50,949 nt of DNA from an uncultured Clostridia bacterium (GTDB taxonomy: Bacteria; Bacillota; Limnochordia; DTU080), in NCBI GenBank assembly GCA_964390985.1, contig CAYMKM010000001.1, positions 1 to 50,949 of the forward strand, in the 5' to 3' direction. The position numbers were made by a program, and so were the translations under genes. This document shows positions 3,440 to 41,946 of the stretch, one piece after another. The number at the start of each line of letters is the position of its first letter. Position 1 is the first letter of the stretch. The notes below the pieces were generated by a model. It saw only the letters and a list, made by a program, of their open reading frames with translations. It made no database searches and was not told where the DNA came from.

Positions 3440-3515
3440 GGGCCTGTAGCTCAGTGGTTAGAGCGTCCGACTCATAATCGGCCGGTCGCAGGTTCAAATC
3501 CTGCCAGGCCCACCA
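3440..3515 (+). tRNA. tRNA with CAU anticodon; probably tRNA-Ile2 (lysidine), otherwise elongator tRNA-Met
   Basis: A cloverleaf was folded by hand. Acceptor is GGGCCUG/CAGGCCC, T arm is GCAGG-UUCAAAU-CCUGC, anticodon loop is CUCAUAA, and CCA is encoded. It lacks initiator features (1-72 is paired and there is no GGG/CCC anticodon stem). The acceptor stem is Ile-like. Confidence 0.88.
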
Positions 3516-3522
3516 ACCTTTT

Positions 3523-3598
3523 GCCACCATCGTCTAGAGGCCTAGGACGCTGCCCTTTCAAGGCAGTAGCGCGGGTTCGAATCCCGCTGGTGGTACCA
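3523..3598 (+). tRNA. tRNA-Glu (UUC)
   Basis: Acceptor is GCCACCA/UGGUGGU, the D region GUCUAGAGGCCUAGGAC is typical of tRNA-Glu, the anticodon loop is CUUUCAA, the T arm is GCGGG-UUCGAAU-CCCGC, and CCA is encoded. Confidence 0.9.
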
Positions 3599-29989: not shown

Positions 29990-31384
29990 GTGCCGCGGGG
30001 GAGTGATAATGTGCATCGGCATGTCCACATGGTAGGAATTGGCGGTATCGGCATGGCGGCGATCGCCCATGTGCTATTGGAGATGGGTGTTACTGTCAGC
30101 GGATCCGATCAAGTCGCAAGTGAAGTAACAAGCAAGTTGGCACAAAGCGGTGCTACGGTGTATATTGGCCATCGGCAACAGCAAGTAACCGGGGCTAGTG
30201 TTGTTGTTGTATCGACCGCTATTCCACCAAATAACGTAGAGGTACAGGCAGCTAAGGCAGCGGGTATACCAGTATGGCATCGTTCGCAGATGCTGGCAGA
30301 GATCCTAAATGTCAAATATGGCATTGCCATAGCCGGCGCACATGGGAAGACTACTATTACATCAATGTTATCTTGGGTGCTATATCAATGCGGTATGGAG
30401 CCCACATTTGTTATTGGCGGCACTTTACCCGGTCTAGGCGGCGCTCATTATGGTACTGGGCCCATGGTTGTGGCGGAAGCGGATGAGAGTGACCGCTCAT
30501 TTTTGTGTTATCGACCTCGAGTAGCCGTGGTCTCCAGCATTGAGGCTGATCATTTGGAGTATTACGATGGGCAATTCTCTAGGTTGGTAGAGACTTTTCA
30601 ACAATTTTTATCGAATGTTGTGGTACCTGATGGCCTGGCTATACTATGCGCAGACGATAAAAACCTAGTAGATATAGGTGAAAAATTATCATGCCAGGTC
30701 ACTTGGTACGGTAGGCACGAAACAGCTGATTACCGGGTATTACAAATCAAAACCAACGGCAAAGGCACCTGCTTTCAAGTCAGCGAGAGGGGCGAGCTAT
30801 TAGGGGAATTCACCTTGGCCATCCCTGGTGAGCACAATGTGATGAACGCCTTAGCAGTAATAGCAATCTGTCGTCATTTAGGTTTACATGTAGCAGGAAT
30901 TGCTGCCGCACTGGCCAGCTTCCCTGGAGCTAAACGCCGGTTCCAAATAATATATGAGCATAATAACATAACAGTAGTTGACGATTACGCCCACCACCCA
31001 TCAGAAATCAAGGCCACTATTAAGGCTGCTCGCCGCGGTTGGCCAAACTCCCGCCTAATTGCCGTGTTCCAGCCACAGCGTTATACACGTACCCACTTTT
31101 TAATGAACGACTTCGCTCGTGCCTTTGGAGAGACAGACCTAGTGGTGTTGACAGAAATATACTCGCCACCTCCCGAGGAACCAATACCAGGCGTAAGTGG
31201 TGAACGCTTAGCCCAACTAGTGCAAATGAATGAACCTAATTTGCCAGTTAGGTATATTGCTGAACGGAGTGAATTGGCACCGTATCTTTATGGTGAGGTT
31301 CGCCCAGGAGACATTGTGCTGATTATGGGTGCCGGCGATATTTGGCGTACCTCGCGGGAATTGGCGGAGAAGTTGCGGGCATAA
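29990..31384 (+). CDS. murC: UDP-N-acetylmuramate--L-alanine ligase
   Basis: HMVGIGGIGMAAIA Rossmann motif, the IAGAHGKTTITSM P-loop and DDYAHHPSEI. The true start may be an internal codon. Confidence 0.93.
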   Translation: MPRGSDNVHRHVHMVGIGGIGMAAIAHVLLEMGVTVSGSDQVASEVTSKLAQSGATVYIGHRQQQVTGASVVVVSTAIPPNNVEVQAAKAAGIPVWHRSQMLAEILNVKYGIAIAGAHGKTTITSMLSWVLYQCGMEPTFVIGGTLPGLGGAHYGTGPMVVAEADESDRSFLCYRPRVAVVSSIEADHLEYYDGQFSRLVETFQQFLSNVVVPDGLAILCADDKNLVDIGEKLSCQVTWYGRHETADYRVLQIKTNGKGTCFQVSERGELLGEFTLAIPGEHNVMNALAVIAICRHLGLHVAGIAAALASFPGAKRRFQIIYEHNNITVVDDYAHHPSEIKATIKAARRGWPNSRLIAVFQPQRYTRTHFLMNDFARAFGETDLVVLTEIYSPPPEEPIPGVSGERLAQLVQMNEPNLPVRYIAERSELAPYLYGEVRPGDIVLIMGAGDIWRTSRELAEKLRA

Positions 31385-31403: not shown

Positions 31404-33113
31404 ATGCATGTTTTGCACGATCCACGCAGTGTTAATGTGTTGCACACGTTCTTATCGGGTAAACATGATAGCAAGGAATGGTTCGACCTAAAAACACAAG
31501 CCGACCAGCTGCGATTAACGCGCGGTTTTGACCGGTTAATCTCCCTTGATGTTCTGGATATTGACCTTTATGAGCATCAGCAGGAGGCGGTTCTTTGTGT
31601 GTTGCGCCAGATGCGCGGGCGGGCTGTGTTGGCCGATGAAGTGGGGCTAGGTAAGACCATTGAAGCGGGAGTAATATGTAAAGAATATTTACTGCGTGGG
31701 TTAATTTGCCGTGTCCTAATACTCGTTCCCGCCTCGTTAGTGACGCAATGGAAGACAGAGATGGCCGAGAAAATTGGCCTTGATTTAGCAGTGGCACGCC
31801 AACCAGGTGCTTTTCGTAAGCATAACTTGGTACTAGCTTCGCTCGACACCGCCAAACGAGCTGATAACGCTGCGGTGATTCATGCCACCCACTGGGATAT
31901 GGTGGTGGTAGACGAAGCTCACCGGTTAAAGAACAAGACCACTGTGAACTGGAGTTTCGTTAATGCGATAGAGAAAAAATTCCTACTTTTGCTTACTGCC
32001 ACTCCAGTGCAAAACGATTTGCGTGAGTTATACAATCTAATCACCCTGCTACAGCCTGGTCAGTTACGCACCTACTCCCAGTTTAAAAAGGAGTTTATGC
32101 TCGACCGCCATTCACCCAAAAATACTGGTCATTTGCGTGAGCTCCTAGCGGAGGTGATGGTACGCAAATGTCGCCGGGAAACCCTTATTCGTTTTCCACA
32201 CCGGGAAGTGCGCTCGCTGAGTGTGCCATTACAAGGTGTTGAAGCACATTTTTATCAGAGTATGCTAACTGCGCTAGGCGAAGCCTACAGAGCACAACCC
32301 GCCAAAAAACGAAATTTGCTCCCATTTTTACTCCTGTTGCGGGAGACCTGCAGTCACCCGCTTGCAGCTTGCCGCACTATGCAAGCCATGGCTAATAAAG
32401 TTGGAAAAGGGGTGATTAAGCAAAGTGTCCTGCACCATCTGCTTACGCTGTGTCCTCAAGAAAAGCCAGCTAAGTTACGGCTAGCTATGGATTTTCTGCA
32501 GAAAATAGACGAACGAGCTATTGTTTTTACAGAGTTCAAAACGACGCAAAAGGCTATTATGGCTGCTTGCAAGGAAGCTAGTATGACAGCGCAAGCTTTT
32601 TACGGCGGGTTAACACCTGGTGAAAAGGAGGAGGTTATTAATAAATTCCGCCGCCGCGGTGGCGTGTTGGTAAGCACCGAATGTGGCAGTGAAGGCCGTA
32701 ATTTGCAGTTTTGCCGTACTATGGTTAACTACGACCTACCTTGGAACCCCATGCGTTTAGAGCAACGAATAGGACGCATTCATCGGTTAGGCCAGACTAG
32801 TGATGTGCTGATCATTAATTTGGTTACAGAAGGTACGGTAGAAGCATACTTGCTTTATTTACTTGAACGGAAAATCAACATGTTTCAAAAGGTGATCGGT
32901 GAAATTGAAGCAGTAATGGCTACTCTGCCAGCACCATACGAGCGTATATTAGCTCACTTGGTGCTAGACTCCGAAAGTGAGGCGCAAGTGGCAGAGCGCT
33001 TTGCCGCTTTTGGCAATGAGCTAGCACAAGCTTGCGAGACTTACGAACGAGTGCGCCGTCTTAACCATCAGCTTTTTTCATCCAATGGTCACCTAGGTGA
33101 AACGGGGGAGTAG
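31404..33113 (+). CDS. SNF2-family helicase/ATPase, paralog A (569 aa)
   Basis: Motif I LADEVGLGKTIEAG, motif II VVVDEAHRLKN, motif III LLLTATPVQN, and motifs V/VI STECGSEGRNLQ and NPMRLEQRIGRIHRLGQ. The start was set at the ATG at 31404, 20 nt after the murC stop. The longer ORF-track start lies inside murC. Confidence 0.85.
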   Translation: MHVLHDPRSVNVLHTFLSGKHDSKEWFDLKTQADQLRLTRGFDRLISLDVLDIDLYEHQQEAVLCVLRQMRGRAVLADEVGLGKTIEAGVICKEYLLRGLICRVLILVPASLVTQWKTEMAEKIGLDLAVARQPGAFRKHNLVLASLDTAKRADNAAVIHATHWDMVVVDEAHRLKNKTTVNWSFVNAIEKKFLLLLTATPVQNDLRELYNLITLLQPGQLRTYSQFKKEFMLDRHSPKNTGHLRELLAEVMVRKCRRETLIRFPHREVRSLSVPLQGVEAHFYQSMLTALGEAYRAQPAKKRNLLPFLLLLRETCSHPLAACRTMQAMANKVGKGVIKQSVLHHLLTLCPQEKPAKLRLAMDFLQKIDERAIVFTEFKTTQKAIMAACKEASMTAQAFYGGLTPGEKEEVINKFRRRGGVLVSTECGSEGRNLQFCRTMVNYDLPWNPMRLEQRIGRIHRLGQTSDVLIINLVTEGTVEAYLLYLLERKINMFQKVIGEIEAVMATLPAPYERILAHLVLDSESEAQVAERFAAFGNELAQACETYERVRRLNHQLFSSNGHLGETGE

Positions 33114-33114
33114 T

Positions 33115-34713
33115 ATGCTAGCCAATGCCATCGTTCCACATGACCAACAGCAAGTTGTAGATGATGCTCAACAACGCGCGGTGCAAAAATTTGTAAAAAA
33201 CTTCCTACGTGCCCACCGTTGCCAGTTTCAATTGGTTGATGGTGTGTTGGTAGCATCTTTGCCTGCAGCGCTGGCAGCTGAATTGGGAGTGGGTTGTCAG
33301 CTGAGGTTGTGTTGGGATAAATCAAGTAATAGCAACGCAGAGTACATAACTTATGGCGTTCCGCTGCTTGACCGCATGTTAGAGTTGGCCAGCCAACGCG
33401 GCCAGGTTTGCAATTTGCTATGTACAGTAGGGTTAAATGTTAAGTTCATGCGGACTGTGTTAACCCAAACTCCCTTTCAAACACCTTCACTAGATGAACC
33501 GGCTACATTTCGTCGCCTTTGCCGAACAGTGGGGAGATTTAACTTAGTAAATGCTAAGTTTAAAATGAATCGCCGTCGCATCATTCACCATCTGCAGTTG
33601 TTATTTATCTTTCGCGTCGCTTTTGTATCTGATGAAAAGCAAGAGGTAATGGTACCCATTCTGATAGATCCTTTGACGGAGGAGACAGATAGGTTAATAG
33701 GTTTAGACCAGACAATATCATTAACACTGCCAATGGAATCTATAGCAACCATTGGTAGCAAAAGCTTTGATGGCGAAGCTCTACCGCTGGAAAGACTACT
33801 GCATAAAGCAGAACTGCCAGCGAGTGCCTATAGCATTGCTCGTTGTTACCAACGAGCGAGTGAGGCATTGGAAGTGAAGTTAACTCATGAATTTAACACA
33901 TATAGTCAGCAGACACAACTCCGTTTGAACAAAGAGTTAAAGAGGATTGATACATACTACAATGGGTTGGCGCAAGAGGTAATAGATCCGTTACGTAAAA
34001 CGTTCAGGCGGATTGCCACTTTATCGGTGCGTACGCAGCTGGCTCGTTCGTTCGATACACAACACCAGTTTAATTCTCAATTACACAAGATGAAGCAAGA
34101 GCGAATTCAACTGGAAAACGCTTGCGATGCTCAGTTGCAAGCTTTAGAAGACGAAAAGCAGCGGAGAATTAGTGAGTTGTACGCCAAGTATCGCACGCAC
34201 ATGGAAGTTCTATTAACAAATATTGCTGCTTTGCGTGTACCCAGGGTGGAGTATAGTCTTAGTACGGAAGGGTCGATTACGCGCAATATTAACTTTTTCT
34301 ACGATGTATTGCGCGATCGGGTGCTCGATTTAGTTTGCGAAAGCTGTGATAAACCGCTCACTGAGGCGTATATTTGTGATTGCGGTGAGCTGGTTTGTCC
34401 CGACTGCGCACATTATTGTACGGAATGTGGCTACTGGGTTTGTGTGAGTTGTGCCGAGACGCGTTGTCATATTTGCGCCAAGCCGAACTGCCCTCGTTGT
34501 GTAGTGCAGTGTCCACTACATATAGAATCAATGGCCACCACCACGGTCTGCCCAAATTGCGCTGAACTCTATTGCAGCTCATGTGTCCGCTGGCAGCCAT
34601 CTTTTGCGGCAATGGAGGGAGGTACAAACACCAACGCACATAAGACTGGCCGGGCTAGAGCGCGAGGCCGACAGCGTTTATTCACTTCAGACAAGCGCAA
34701 CGTATGCGATTGA
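33115..34713 (+). CDS. Unknown-function partner of helicase A: YqhG-like N-terminal region + coiled coil + 19-Cys zinc-ribbon array (532 aa)
   Basis: It is translationally coupled: SD GGGGGAG, helicase stop TAG at 33111-13, ATG at 33115. By eye the N-terminal ~250 aa are colinear with the 284-aa protein on the other strand. The C terminus has nine CxxC/CxC pairs. The function is not known. Confidence 0.65.
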   Translation: MLANAIVPHDQQQVVDDAQQRAVQKFVKNFLRAHRCQFQLVDGVLVASLPAALAAELGVGCQLRLCWDKSSNSNAEYITYGVPLLDRMLELASQRGQVCNLLCTVGLNVKFMRTVLTQTPFQTPSLDEPATFRRLCRTVGRFNLVNAKFKMNRRRIIHHLQLLFIFRVAFVSDEKQEVMVPILIDPLTEETDRLIGLDQTISLTLPMESIATIGSKSFDGEALPLERLLHKAELPASAYSIARCYQRASEALEVKLTHEFNTYSQQTQLRLNKELKRIDTYYNGLAQEVIDPLRKTFRRIATLSVRTQLARSFDTQHQFNSQLHKMKQERIQLENACDAQLQALEDEKQRRISELYAKYRTHMEVLLTNIAALRVPRVEYSLSTEGSITRNINFFYDVLRDRVLDLVCESCDKPLTEAYICDCGELVCPDCAHYCTECGYWVCVSCAETRCHICAKPNCPRCVVQCPLHIESMATTTVCPNCAELYCSSCVRWQPSFAAMEGGTNTNAHKTGRARARGRQRLFTSDKRNVCD

Positions 34714-35423
34714 TCGGCTTGCACTTTATGTTGGGCGTAGTAAGAGCGCAATGTACGCATTTCCACAGCTAAAGCCAGCAGTGCTTCACGAGCCCAACCG
34801 TCATCTTCGTGGCGGAGCTGATCGATGGTATACTCACGCGCCAACTCGAAAGCATCGGCTACCGTAATATTGCGAGAGGCTACTCTGGTGGGAACTTCGG
34901 GACTCAATTCTCCTTCCGCACAATACTTTGCCAGCATTGGGCACAGTTGTCCACTGGACAAGTTTACACCGATGGGTAGCAGTTTTTCATGGCGGTTGCG
35001 GCCAGCGAAGGAGACTTTCATATGTATTAACAAGTAAGGATAATATTGTTCATCGTAGGGTGGGGTATGTTCAGATGACAATATAGTAAACCGGCCCAAA
35101 TGTCCGTGGTGACGGGCTGAGGTGATCATTTGCTGTAGCCGATGACTGCCAGGCGCAATTAGTTCAGCACGTAGGTCATTAGCATCAGCAGTATTAAATG
35201 CCAGGTATATAACGGAATTAGCTTGTGCGTTGGTGTTACTGTAAATCCCCCAAGGCGATAGAGAACGCCCTTCTAACTCGGCAAACTGCTCCGCTGTGAA
35301 TTCAGCCCGCAGCAAAGGCCCTTCATATGTTAATGATGCTCCTAGTTCGTTCAAGTAAGTGGTTACGAATAGACGCAATTTTTCTGTTTGCCTGTTTGAA
35401 GTCATGGGCACGCTACACATCAC
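34569..35423 (-). CDS. Unknown-function partner of helicase B, YqhG-like (about 280 aa)
   Basis: Its start codons (GTG 35423 / ATG 35420) overlap the TGA of helicase B (GTGATG). The size and the pairing with an SNF2-like helicase recall B. subtilis yqhG/yqhH. The last ~48 codons overlap the convergent gene. Confidence 0.6.
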   Translation of the reverse strand: MMCSVPMTSNRQTEKLRLFVTTYLNELGASLTYEGPLLRAEFTAEQFAELEGRSLSPWGIYSNTNAQANSVIYLAFNTADANDLRAELIAPGSHRLQQMITSARHHGHLGRFTILSSEHTPPYDEQYYPYLLIHMKVSFAGRNRHEKLLPIGVNLSSGQLCPMLAKYCAEGELSPEVPTRVASRNITVADAFELAREYTIDQLRHEDDGWAREALLALAVEMRTLRSYYAQHKVQADQSHTLRLSEVNKRCRPRALARPVLCALVFVPPSIAAKDGCQRTHELQ

Positions 35424-37288
35424 CTTATGCTAAGCCAGCGATCTATTTTTGTGCGCTGTTCTTGTACCTGTTGTTGAGCGCTGCTGAAACTTTCAGCGAG
35501 TTCATCGAGGCGCTGGCGAACCAAAGCGGGGTCAGTATCGCTATCGGCCAAGATTTGATAAAGCTGTTTTTCAAAACCTTTACCATCGCCTAGTTGAGCG
35601 AGGATGGCATCTAGTTCACCCATCACCAGGTTAAACATGTTTATCTTTTCATGCAGTAAATAAAGGATATACTCTTCAATGGTACCAGCAGTAGACATGT
35701 TATAAATGTGCACGTCGCGGGTTTGCCCTAGTCGGTGCACTCTACCAATACGCTGTTCTATACGCATGGGGTTCCATGGTAAATCGTAATTGACCACATG
35801 AGAGGCAAATTGGAAGTTGAGCCCTTCGCCGCCTGATTCAGTACTCACTAGCACATCGCCTTGCCGACGAAACAGTTCTCGCACCCACTCTTTTCTGTTA
35901 GCAGAAAGCGATCCATCGAATCCTAACGCCATTAAACCTTCTTGTTCCAGACGCCAACGCAAATATTGTTGGGTCGTTCGGTATTCAGTAAAGACAATCA
36001 CCTTTTCGCCTATTTCATTAACCAGCTCTACCAGACGTTCTGCCTTACTACAAATAGGGCAGGCCAGGGCTGTTTGTAACAGCTGTTGCAGATGCTCCTC
36101 TAAAGGTGCATTTGTACCTTTGTTAATCATATTTTGCAGTGTAAAAGCTGTGGCTAGTGGCGACGAACAAGTTTCTCGTTCTAGGGTGAGTAAGCATAAG
36201 GCATTAGGTAGACTCCACTCGCAGCTATCAGATAGATGATGGCGCAACTCGCCGATGTCTTGATATAGCTTGCGTTCTTCTGGCGTTAGTTCCACTTGGA
36301 CCGTGCTAACTTGCCGGGCTGTGAATTCTACAGTATCCTTCCCTCTTCGGTTGCGAATCATCACTTCATCGAGTAAACGACGCAATGCTGGTGCATCGCG
36401 AGGTAGGCGTTTATCGTAAACATAACGGTCCAGAAACTGTGTGTAGGTGCCTAGCTGGCCTGGTTTTAGTAGGGTTATCAGGTTGAATAATTCCTTCAGA
36501 TCATTTTGCAATGGGGTAGCAGTTAACATCAGGAAGTACTTTTTGCTTAGACTATTAACTAATTGCCAGTTAGCGGTGTTGGCGTTCTTTAATTTGTGAG
36601 CTTCATCCACCACTAGTATGTCGTAACTCAAATTGCGAATTATATCGCAGTGCGGTTGCCGCTTAGCAGTATCCACGCTGGCTATAAGCACATCGCAGCG
36701 TTCCCAATCATACTCACTGCGTTGTAGCGTAGCGAGTATCCCGAATTTATCTTTCATCTCTTGATACCACTGCCAACATAAACTAGCCGGAGTTAGAATT
36801 AACACCCGCCTAGCCATGCCGCGCAACATATACTCTTTTATGATCATACACGCTTCAATGGTTTTGCCTAAGCCAACTTCATCGGCCAAAATGGCACGGC
36901 CGTCCATATGGGTGATAACACGTTTTGCGGTTGCCAGCTGGTGAGGGAAAGCTATAACACCAGCTCGTCGCCAGCGATCTTGTAGGTTAGCTAGTACGAG
37001 CAATTCTGTATCATCGGTAAGTAAGTCTAACTCCTGTGCCAAAAGAGCTAGTTGGTACCATGAGAGTTTAGCCCAGCGTTGGGCTTGCATACTCTGGCAC
37101 AGCTGGCGCACGGCTGTTATAGAAAGGTTCATAGTGTAATTTTCGGTGACAGCTTCCTCAAAGGTGAATTCTTCCTCTGGTAGGGGCCGAAAAAGGTTTT
37201 CGTAACGAAAGGTCATAATGGGTACTGTAATGGGGAATAGCCGTATAGGTACAGTCTCTTTATTGGGAATAGCTAATTCCAATAGCAT
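35420..37288 (-). CDS. SNF2-family helicase/ATPase, paralog B (about 622 aa)
   Basis: LADEVGLGKTIEAC, LVVDEAHKLKN, MLTATPLQN, STESGGEGLNFQ and NPMRIEQRIGRVHRLGQ. The start was trimmed to the ATG at 37288, because the ORF-track N terminus (to 37483) is an antisense read-through of tRNA-Ala. The SD is very close to this ATG, so the exact start is uncertain (alternative ATG at 37216). Confidence 0.82.
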   Translation of the reverse strand: MLLELAIPNKETVPIRLFPITVPIMTFRYENLFRPLPEEEFTFEEAVTENYTMNLSITAVRQLCQSMQAQRWAKLSWYQLALLAQELDLLTDDTELLVLANLQDRWRRAGVIAFPHQLATAKRVITHMDGRAILADEVGLGKTIEACMIIKEYMLRGMARRVLILTPASLCWQWYQEMKDKFGILATLQRSEYDWERCDVLIASVDTAKRQPHCDIIRNLSYDILVVDEAHKLKNANTANWQLVNSLSKKYFLMLTATPLQNDLKELFNLITLLKPGQLGTYTQFLDRYVYDKRLPRDAPALRRLLDEVMIRNRRGKDTVEFTARQVSTVQVELTPEERKLYQDIGELRHHLSDSCEWSLPNALCLLTLERETCSSPLATAFTLQNMINKGTNAPLEEHLQQLLQTALACPICSKAERLVELVNEIGEKVIVFTEYRTTQQYLRWRLEQEGLMALGFDGSLSANRKEWVRELFRRQGDVLVSTESGGEGLNFQFASHVVNYDLPWNPMRIEQRIGRVHRLGQTRDVHIYNMSTAGTIEEYILYLLHEKINMFNLVMGELDAILAQLGDGKGFEKQLYQILADSDTDPALVRQRLDELAESFSSAQQQVQEQRTKIDRWLSIR

Positions 37289-37401: not shown

Positions 37402-37477
<76 letters not shown>

Positions 37478-41400: not shown

Positions 41401-41946
41401 TTGACTAAAAAATTATACCGATCTCAGCGCGATCATGTTGTGGCGGGCTTAGCCGGTGGCATAGGCGAATATTTCGGAATAGATGCCAACGTAATAAGGC
41501 TAGGGTTACTTTTAACCATGGTCTTTGGCGGTGGTGGCATAATTGCATATATTGTTGGCTGGATTATTATTCCGCCAGAATCTGGCGATAGCGCCGAGGC
41601 TAGTATGTTTCATAAGAGTGAGGTTTGGCGTCGACGTCTCATGCACGGTGCCAAACAAATGGAAGCGCACTTGCATACTCATACCACTCCGGTTACCGAG
41701 CCAGCGCCAATGCCTGATGCAAACCAGCCAGAGCAGCCAGAGCAGCCAGAGCAGCCGGAGCAAACAATACCACATGAGTCAGCACTTACACACCGTCAGC
41801 AAATAGGTGGAGCCATTCTGATTGCTATAGGATTATTCATGATAGTACTTAGGTTCTTTCCTTGGATTAACATAGTGGCATGGTTGTGGCCATTTATCAT
41901 AGTTGGTCTAGGTGTTATTTTGATTGTACGCGGTTTGCATGAATAG
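41401..41946 (+). CDS. PspC-domain membrane protein
   Basis: LYRSQRDHVVAGLAGGIGEYFGIDANVIRLGLLL is a PspC domain. It is followed by a TM segment, a (QPE)4 linker and two C-terminal TM segments. TTG start. Confidence 0.8.
   Translation: MTKKLYRSQRDHVVAGLAGGIGEYFGIDANVIRLGLLLTMVFGGGGIIAYIVGWIIIPPESGDSAEASMFHKSEVWRRRLMHGAKQMEAHLHTHTTPVTEPAPMPDANQPEQPEQPEQPEQTIPHESALTHRQQIGGAILIAIGLFMIVLRFFPWINIVAWLWPFIIVGLGVILIVRGLHE
41725..41760 (+). repeat. In-frame 9-bp tandem repeat x4 (CAGCCAGAG x3, CAGCCGGAG) encoding (QPE)4
   Basis: Read directly from the sequence. Confidence 0.9.

Follow-up and report, generated by a model that had tools for sequence, protein, structure and literature searches.

Gene content of the block between murC and tRNA-Ala

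The stretch of DNA analysed here (the window) comprises 50,949 nt of contig CAYMKM010000001.1 (assembly GCA_964390985.1) from an uncultured Clostridia bacterium of the Limnochordia. Between murC and a tRNA-Ala gene, it carries four genes arranged as two facing pairs, each made up of a Snf2-family ATPase (helicase) gene, helA or helB, and the gene of a partner protein, partA or partB. The relationship of these pairs to RapA, an Escherichia coli Swi2/Snf2 enzyme that removes RNA polymerase (RNAP) from post-termination complexes (PMC8501970, PMC8666675), was investigated by comparing sequences, predicted structures and gene neighborhoods. The features of the block, with the evidence on which each was called, are the following (aa, amino acids; AF2, AlphaFold2; pLDDT, predicted local distance difference test score; ORF, open reading frame).

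29990-31384, + strand: murC, the upstream neighbor; Mur ligase domains were called in the near-identical contig L020
31404-33113, + strand: helA, Snf2-family ATPase, 569 aa (Pfam, hhalign, intact motifs)
33115-34713, + strand: partA, long-form YqhG-like protein, 532 aa (junction, hhalign against the PartB family, AF2)
33157-33819, + strand: PartA residues 15-235, YqhG-like / RapA-Spacer-like alpha/beta core (hhalign, AF2)
33820-34188, + strand: PartA residues 236-358, long antiparallel helical hairpin (AF2 pLDDT 95-98)
34327-34593, + strand: PartA residues 405-493, cysteine-rich array (invariant alignment columns)
34569-34713, both strands: overlap of the partA and partB 3' ends, 145 nt (ORF map; also present in L020)
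34569-35420, - strand: partB, canonical YqhG, 283 aa (PF11079, AF2, Foldseek, hhalign)
35420-37288, - strand: helB, Snf2-family ATPase, 622 aa (Pfam, NCBIfam RapA profile, hhalign)
37402-37477, + strand: tRNA-Ala(CGC), divergent from helB (tRNA scans)

The ORF map gives all four genes at the coordinates proposed in the first-pass annotation, which was made from the letters of the sequence alone, and the sequence bears out the two tight junctions described there. The helA/partA boundary reads GGGGGAG-TAG-T-ATG, with GGGGGAG at 33104-10, the stop codon TAG at 33111-13 and the partA ATG at 33115, and the GTGATG at the start of partB contains the helB TGA, so that start and stop overlap. The murC stop codon (TAA, 31382-84) is separated by 19 nt from helA, whose ATG at 31404 is residue 1 in alignments of HelA orthologues. 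No terminator-like site was found in the murC-helA interval or at the partA-partB junction; promoter and terminator scans performed at chance level and were set aside as evidence.

Three start codons are candidates for helB, namely ATG 37288 (GGAGG merely 2 nt upstream), GTG 37291 and GTG 37348. The last of these has AGAGG 7 nt upstream, is the one chosen by the gene caller in L020, and gives a 642-aa HelB. A longer ORF reaching up to 37483 was rejected as spurious, as it runs antisense through the tRNA-Ala gene. At the other end of this pair, most of the partA/partB overlap places conserved PartB coding sequence beneath the poorly conserved, low-pLDDT tail of PartA, and the remaining end places the variable tail of PartB beneath the last Cys pair of PartA. 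The overlap looks like a deletion scar of intervening genes and would imply convergent, overlapping transcription.

The helicases, their partners and the RapA C-terminus

Both helicases are intact paralogous Snf2 ATPases, in agreement with the first-pass annotation. HelA matched the Pfam domains SNF2-rel_dom (136.8 bits, 1e-39) and Helicase_C (80.5 bits, 1.3e-22), and HelB matched the same domains at 116.6 and 84.9 bits; both pass the gathering cut-offs of 24.9 bits for SNF2-rel_dom and 23.5 bits for Helicase_C. The two proteins retain the catalytic motifs I, II, III and VI (DEVGLGKT, DEAH, TATP and QRIGR(I/V)HRLGQ) and share 44% identity over 499 aa (E 6e-141). The N-terminal surplus of HelB, previously put at ~90 aa, is ~58 aa, or ~78 aa if GTG 37348 is the true start.

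The best solved relative of the helicases was RapA (E 3e-41). In hhalign, HelA 15-483 aligned on RapA 114-621 and HelB on RapA 132-635, with an identity of ~32% between the Snf2 cores and RapA 114-635, and in the NCBIfam RapA profile HelB 67-614 fell on positions 115-678. The hhalign and NCBIfam alignments of the helicases start at RapA 114-132. The Tudor domains PF18339 and PF18337 gave no Pfam match in the helicases at E <= 0.1, and a RapA-type Tudor N-terminal domain (NTD), sought in the N-terminal extension of HelB (66-88 residues) using Pfam, NCBIfam and hhalign, was not detected. At their C-terminal ends the helicases stop at about RapA 680-690; RapA_C (PF12137), which spans RapA 605-965, was not found in the same chain as the ATPase core. 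For both helicases, models of DrmD from the DISARM defence system ranked first in NCBIfam and PADLOC (E 1e-70 to 1e-77). In the DrmD profile both fell on about 503-710, and they scored 238-258 bits, under the cut-offs of NF038317/NF038318 (610 and 950 bits).

PartB belongs to the Pfam family YqhG (PF11079; 65.3 bits, E 5.6e-18, profile positions 3-245 of 258), passing the gathering cut-off of 25 bits, and the B pair is of the Bacillus subtilis YqhH/YqhG type, as had been suggested. PartA gave no match to PF11079 at E <= 0.1 and produced noise alone in Pfam, NCBIfam and PADLOC (Siva, RimP, LeoBC; E at least 0.007). Pairwise BLASTP of PartA against PartB was marginal (E 0.004). Profiles made from independent orthologue sets, PartA plus two (A1) and PartB plus six (A2), aligned in hhalign with a probability of 96.3% (E 2e-9; A 15-284 on B 7-231) and in exactly the three registers that the first-pass annotation had picked out by eye. 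The partners differ in length but are homologous; because this homology is seen only at the profile level, PartA is a relative within the YqhG superfamily that lies outside the current PF11079. The PartB-family profile found no solved relative among PDB sequences, and PADLOC returned no significant match for the partners.

The AF2 models of PartA (pLDDT 86.2, predicted template modelling score (pTM) 0.74) and PartB (pLDDT 87.7, pTM 0.68) contain secondary-structure elements in the same order. PartB has a short helical hairpin with helices at 187-204, 208-230 and 237-250, and the corresponding PartA helices occupy 236-309 and 313-358. Judging from the models, the ~120-residue hairpin of PartA is an expanded version of the PartB hairpin (187-250); its 74-residue helix, at 1.5 Å per residue, is estimated to span ~110 Å if fully helical. 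A long beta-strand then closes the fold (B 253-266, A 362-385), after which PartA adds further strands and a cysteine array. The array contains 19 invariant Cys and 1 His between residues 408 and 490, arranged in about ten CxxC-type pairs, which suffice for roughly five Zn sites. Its first site (C408, C411, C428 and C431) is the most conserved among 38 homologues, and searches that included PDB sequences gave weak B-box, FYVE and RING-like matches only. The AF2 helices and the invariant columns confirm the coiled coil and cysteine array recognized in PartA at first pass.

The likeness of YqhG to the RapA C-terminus was not seen in the first-pass annotation, and it turns the partner into a specific hypothesis. 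When the PartB model was compared with 350,542 PDB chains using Foldseek, the significant matches were all to E. coli RapA, led by 6bog_A (E 1.8e-6, probability 1.00) and followed by 8t0l_F, 8so8, 8spg and 4s20_K (4e-3); the first non-RapA match had an E of 0.29. An hhalign comparison of 31 diverse YqhG-like sequences with RapA 681-968, represented by an alignment from four genera (Escherichia, Proteus, Aeromonas and Acinetobacter), placed PartB 12-226 on RapA 712-923 with a probability of 87.4% (E 3.7e-6). The 38-sequence PartA family placed PartA 18-95 on 710-794 (probability 88.7%, E 2.6e-6), and both partner families reached RapA residues 711-791 even against a single RapA sequence. In the NCBIfam RapA profile, residues 7-248 of the partner homologue P0129 matched positions 704-932 (E 0.025). 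An unfiltered hidden Markov model (HMM) of the RapA C-terminus gave in-register matches in 104 of ~185 family members (best E 1.3e-5), and its shuffled control gave 17 matches, out of register. By HMMER, PF12137 was reached by no sampled member of the partner family. A comparison of two further alignments, A3 and A4 (E 3e-79), was discarded as circular, as members were common to both.

The helicase alignments end at ~678-686 of the RapA profile and at ~710 of the DrmD profile, and the partner alignments start at about 698 and about 721, respectively. Since the former end before the latter begin, helicase and partner abut without overlap on the RapA and DrmD profiles. Jointly, they span RapA between its NTD and a point near its C-terminus, in colinear order and at approximately RapA length. 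In the DrmD profile, residues 51-273 of the homologue P0127 matched positions 772-985 (E 3.5e-4), and positions 772-999 of NF038317 were matched by 5 of the 31 YqhG-like partners (P0127, P0039 and three others). These matches suggest a RapA_C-like tail module common to DrmD and RapA.

Natural fusions of a Snf2 core with a partner were found in two clusters, both at about the length of RapA. One (the P0037 cluster) holds five 987-aa sequences, and a second contains P0056 (1007 aa) and P0171 (1011 aa). One sequence of the first cluster, P0166, was found on 24 contigs, so fusions of this type are unlikely to be assembly artefacts. In six of six other contexts examined, the partner gene lies directly 3' of a Snf2 gene, whose stop codon usually overlaps the partner's start codon. 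On the contigs L011 (2200-5377) and L012 (3363-6540), a 603-aa Snf2 gene overlaps the gene of a long-form partner of 463 aa with ~22 Cys. In the NCBI assignment, this partner (PIN93824.1) comes from a Candidatus Pacearchaeota archaeon, which makes one of the six contexts archaeal; the two-gene module therefore extends beyond bacteria.

The long partner with its coiled coil and zinc array is not unique. An exhaustive HMMER search with the PartA profile against 1.84 billion cluster representatives (clusters at 50% identity) returned 743 clusters at E <= 1e-3, 307 at <= 1e-10 and 52 at <= 1e-30. A word-indexed search of 5.8 billion proteins returned 3 relatives of PartA and 7-15 of PartB; the fast word index badly understates the size of the PartA family. 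The PartB/YqhG HMM also recognizes the N-terminal part of nearly all of the top 150 PartA-family matches, and the PF11079 threshold was passed by 19 of 31 sampled family members. The family forms a size continuum from YqhG itself (~260-315 aa) through mid forms (~350-430 aa, 4-8 Cys) to long forms (~460-530 aa, ~20 Cys), with some longer still (600-750 aa).

Conservation and history of the block

The four-gene arrangement is a conserved feature of Limnochordia chromosomes and not a one-off duplication. The 126.6-kb contig L020, recovered from 4 samples and showing 99.3-99.7% protein identity to the window, contains the same junction including the 145-nt overlap, and the partners also lie end to end in three more assemblies from two more distant lineages (L002 and L003; L015). 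An assembly chimera, which had been raised as a possibility, is excluded by these junctions. A scan of species-representative genomes yielded five Limnochordia or unclassified Bacillota metagenome-assembled genomes. In these and in metagenomic contigs, gene order is kept at protein identities of just 25-65% and reads (FtsK/Hsp33)-UPF0182-SpoIIP-(MurC)-HelA-PartA...PartB-HelB-tRNA-Ala-RimO-like-PgsA-YchF; the Limnochordia with this order are species-level to family-level diverged. The helB-tRNA-Ala adjacency is kept in relatives, and the UPF0182-spoIIP-helA linkage is universal. The murC-helA adjacency is not universal, because murC is absent between spoIIP and helA in L005, L006 and L008. GC content is flat (0.45-0.50), and together with the conserved core-gene synteny this rules out a mobile island. 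No nuclease, methylase, integrase or transposase is present in the block, as the first-pass annotation had stated.

In a neighbor-joining tree of the helicase cores, for which no bootstrap was computed, the A and B proteins form separate clades that are mirrored across species, and the A clade also includes helicases from the single-pair loci L013 and L014. The separate, mirrored clades and the conserved synteny indicate that the two modules are old paralogues, inherited vertically. The first-pass annotation had described a tandem-duplicated block with the genes running head-in. The facing arrangement stands; a recent tandem duplication is rejected by the old A and B clades.

In relatives, 3-5 kb lie between partA and partB, including the gene of an MrfA-like helicase (817-841 aa; DEAD, Helicase_C, WHD_HRQ1 and the MrfA Zn-binding domain PF09369, formerly DUF1998). 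This gene occurs between the modules in most of the Limnochordia relatives. It lies directly 3' of partA, on the helA-partA strand, in L004-L006, L008 and L009 (e.g., L004 10859-13384, - strand; L009 9597-12050), and its 3' end is at the contig edge in L007. It was not found in the whole window (1-50949), L002 or L015. Loss of the MrfA-like helicase gene probably created the partA/partB 3' overlap.

Elsewhere in the window, a short tandem repeat is present at 41725-41762 (CAGCCAGAG x 4.2, 96% matches), and genes for tRNA-Met(CAT) and tRNA-Glu(TTC) occupy 3440-3598 on the + strand with 8 nt between them.

Possible function of the paired genes

Of the functional options raised at first pass, a RapA-type role and a role in defence, the evidence favours the former. 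Our preferred reading, to which we assign a probability of about 0.6, is that the products of the block are two RapA-like Swi2/Snf2 enzymes, ancient paralogues that are each 'split' into two subunits and are probably RNAP-dislodging motors. Each helicase gene would supply the ATPase core, the counterpart of E. coli RapA ~114-690, and each partner would be a free-standing homologue of the RapA Spacer and C-terminal domain (Spacer/CTD, ~705-925), which form part of the RapA_C region. Both helicases would be devoid of the autoinhibitory N-terminal Tudor domain of RapA. The tight translational coupling and the natural fusions support a 1:1 helicase-partner complex, and coupled translation may aid its assembly. 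As the YqhG match includes the RapA Spacer segment, we infer a RapA-like heterodimer with the Snf2 core as its motor.

Structural work on RapA indicates how such a heterodimer might act. RapA Spacer residue D744 contacts K66 of the beta' zinc-binding domain (ZBD; PMC8501970), deletion of the ZBD nearly abolishes the activation of RapA ATPase by RNAP (PMC8501970; PMC8666675), and in the post-termination complex the cleft is open, with the Spacer inserted as a wedge (bioRxiv 10.1101/2024.09.28.614012). B. subtilis YqhH has been treated as a HepA/RapA-like, RNAP-associated SF2 translocase, and some authors name it HepA (PMC7385302). The YqhG-like subunit could then be a docking or wedge element, as the Spacer is in RapA, and ATP-driven DNA translocation by the Snf2 core would take post-termination or stalled RNAP off the DNA. 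The classical YqhH/YqhG type is represented by module B. In module A, the extended hairpin and the ~5-site zinc array may provide a longer probe and an extra nucleic-acid- or protein-binding head, presumably for a different substrate such as polymerase stalled at DNA damage.

The pairs resemble the known RapA enzymes (HepA; PDB 6BOG, 4S20, 7M8E and 8T0L; Pfam Tudor_RapA + SNF2-rel_dom + Helicase_C + RapA_C) in their Snf2 core, in the partner fold and its profile match to ~705-925, and in their colinear combined length. They differ in being divided between two polypeptides, with the break near RapA residue ~690, in the ~120-residue hairpin and zinc array of the module A partner, neither of which is present in RapA, and in the presence of two paralogous copies; RNAP binding is, for these proteins, a prediction. 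They fall outside RapA as formally defined on three counts, namely the score cut-off, the Tudor NTD and a RapA_C in a single chain. In B. subtilis, the counterpart of the B pair is YqhH/YqhG; PartB scores above the PF11079 threshold, and the helicase gene precedes that of the partner, with coupled translation, as in the yqhH/yqhG adjacency cited in the first-pass annotation. In contrast to B. subtilis, a second, divergent pair faces it here, whose partner fails PF11079 and is about twice as long. The antiparallel helical hairpin bearing a zinc ribbon in HP0958, CT398 and MSMEG_4306 (PDB 4ILO, 5Y05) provides a loose analogy to PartA, although these proteins are without a YqhG-like core or a multi-site cysteine array. 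HP0958/CT398-type proteins were among the PartA Foldseek matches but were not significant (E 2.4-3.1, probability about 0.6).

Several observations weigh against a split RapA. The Foldseek superposition of PartB on RapA is remote (TM-score 0.34, root-mean-square deviation about 10 Å), and the full PartA model retrieved nothing significant from PDB; its top matches were coiled-coil noise (Wzc, MORC2, PI3K p85 iSH2 and HlyD; E at least 0.046), probably dominated by the long hairpin. The hhalign probabilities against RapA (87-89%) lie below 95%, and the HMMER matches between partner and RapA are marginal. A 7-sequence PartB profile hit the same RapA segment with an E of 0.2-0.4, which is not significant, and the significance of the PartB match required the 31-sequence alignment. 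PartA is tied to RapA through its N-terminal ~80 residues and, by transitivity, through its homology to PartB. HelA and HelB scored 212.6 and 207.2 bits against the NCBIfam RapA model NF003426, under its cut-off of 576 bits, and the undetected Tudor NTD is a major part of the RNAP interface in RapA. The B. subtilis counterpart of RapA is usually named YwqA, not YqhH (PMC12448304). DrmD apparently has the same C-terminal module, so this architecture is not confined to RNAP recycling, and the archaeal pair argues against a dependence on bacterial-specific RNAP features.

Taken at their most severe, the low TM-score, the hhalign probabilities under 90% and the marginal HMMER E-values could mean that the resemblance to RapA is a false positive. 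The partners would then be unrelated accessory proteins, and the helicases generic Snf2 remodelers with a lineage-specific adaptor aimed, for example, at a nucleoid protein. We consider this improbable, since four independent methods converge on one RapA segment and one register where the shuffled control fails, and since helicase and partner map contiguously on the RapA and DrmD profiles and occur as fusions. A stronger competitor, though still unlikely, holds that the pairs are DNA-repair or replication-stress translocases acting on lesions or forks, with the partner and its zinc array reading DNA structures in cooperation with the MrfA-type helicase. Zinc ribbons commonly bind nucleic acids, an MrfA-like helicase lies directly 3' of partA in the five loci given above (and at the edge of L007), and the existence of an archaeal homologue pair favours an RNAP-independent repair role. 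In addition, a yqhH truncation was singled out for the study of UV resistance in the UV-selected Bacillus thuringiensis mutant LLP29-M19 (PMC10054049). Against repair, both modules are kept in the window, L002 and L015, where the MrfA-like gene is not present, and the sole significant structural relative of the partner is an RNAP-binding factor, RapA. A preprint (PMC12871841) links RapA to the tolerance of replication/transcription conflicts after DNA damage, and on that account a repair role is compatible with RNAP removal at lesions. That the MrfA-type linkage, the UV report on yqhH and this preprint jointly point to polymerase at damage or replication conflicts is speculation.

The lowest likelihood, a little under that of a false positive, goes to an anti-phage module or remnant related to DISARM, in which the helicases are DrmD-like and a DUF1998/MZB helicase replaces DrmA/DrmB in relatives. 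Such a module would explain why DrmD models head the NCBIfam and PADLOC matches of both helicases, why one homologue of the partners aligns with the DrmD profile in its C-terminal part, and why a helicase with a former DUF1998 domain adjoins in relatives. The pairs apparently share with DrmD the build of a Snf2 core and a RapA_C-like tail, yet at 244-258 bits the helicases score far below the DrmD cut-offs, and the partners have no significant PADLOC match. DrmA, DrmB, DrmC and a methyltransferase were all absent from the block and from 10 kb on either side, no methyltransferase, phospholipase D (PLD) or other nuclease is present in the block or its neighbors, and a Foldseek search of PartB against viral structures found no relatives. 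The block also sits within conserved housekeeping synteny of the core chromosome (UPF0182, spoIIP, murC, rimO-like, pgsA, ychF) with flat GC, unlike a defence island.

What is new is the link between YqhG and the RapA C-terminus; the gene arrangement itself is ordinary for this lineage. In the papers searched, the function of the Bacillus-type YqhG family was nowhere described, and the link provides this family with a first testable role, in which YqhH and YqhG of B. subtilis would act as a RapA-like heterodimer on RNAP. We give roughly even odds to the broader proposal that YqhG and its relatives in the 743 clusters, some with a coiled coil and zinc array, are detached RapA Spacer/CTD subunits of a widespread two-subunit class found in bacteria and DPANN archaea, that Limnochordia keep two specialised systems of this class next to each other, and that the zinc-bearing form engages RNAP or damaged DNA with its long helical probe, in a manner without parallel in RapA. 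If the split-enzyme reading is true, RapA-like RNAP recycling would extend beyond the single-chain RapA of proteobacteria, and many 'orphan helicase' Snf2 genes would be half of a two-gene enzyme. The tail module apparently common to DISARM DrmD hints at a kinship of defence helicases and transcription factors, and the zinc-array partners, with the two paralogous systems retained in one lineage, amount to a natural experiment in the retargeting of a Snf2 motor by accessory modules. The value of the finding lies in a functional lead for the YqhG family and in its large zinc-array subfamily.

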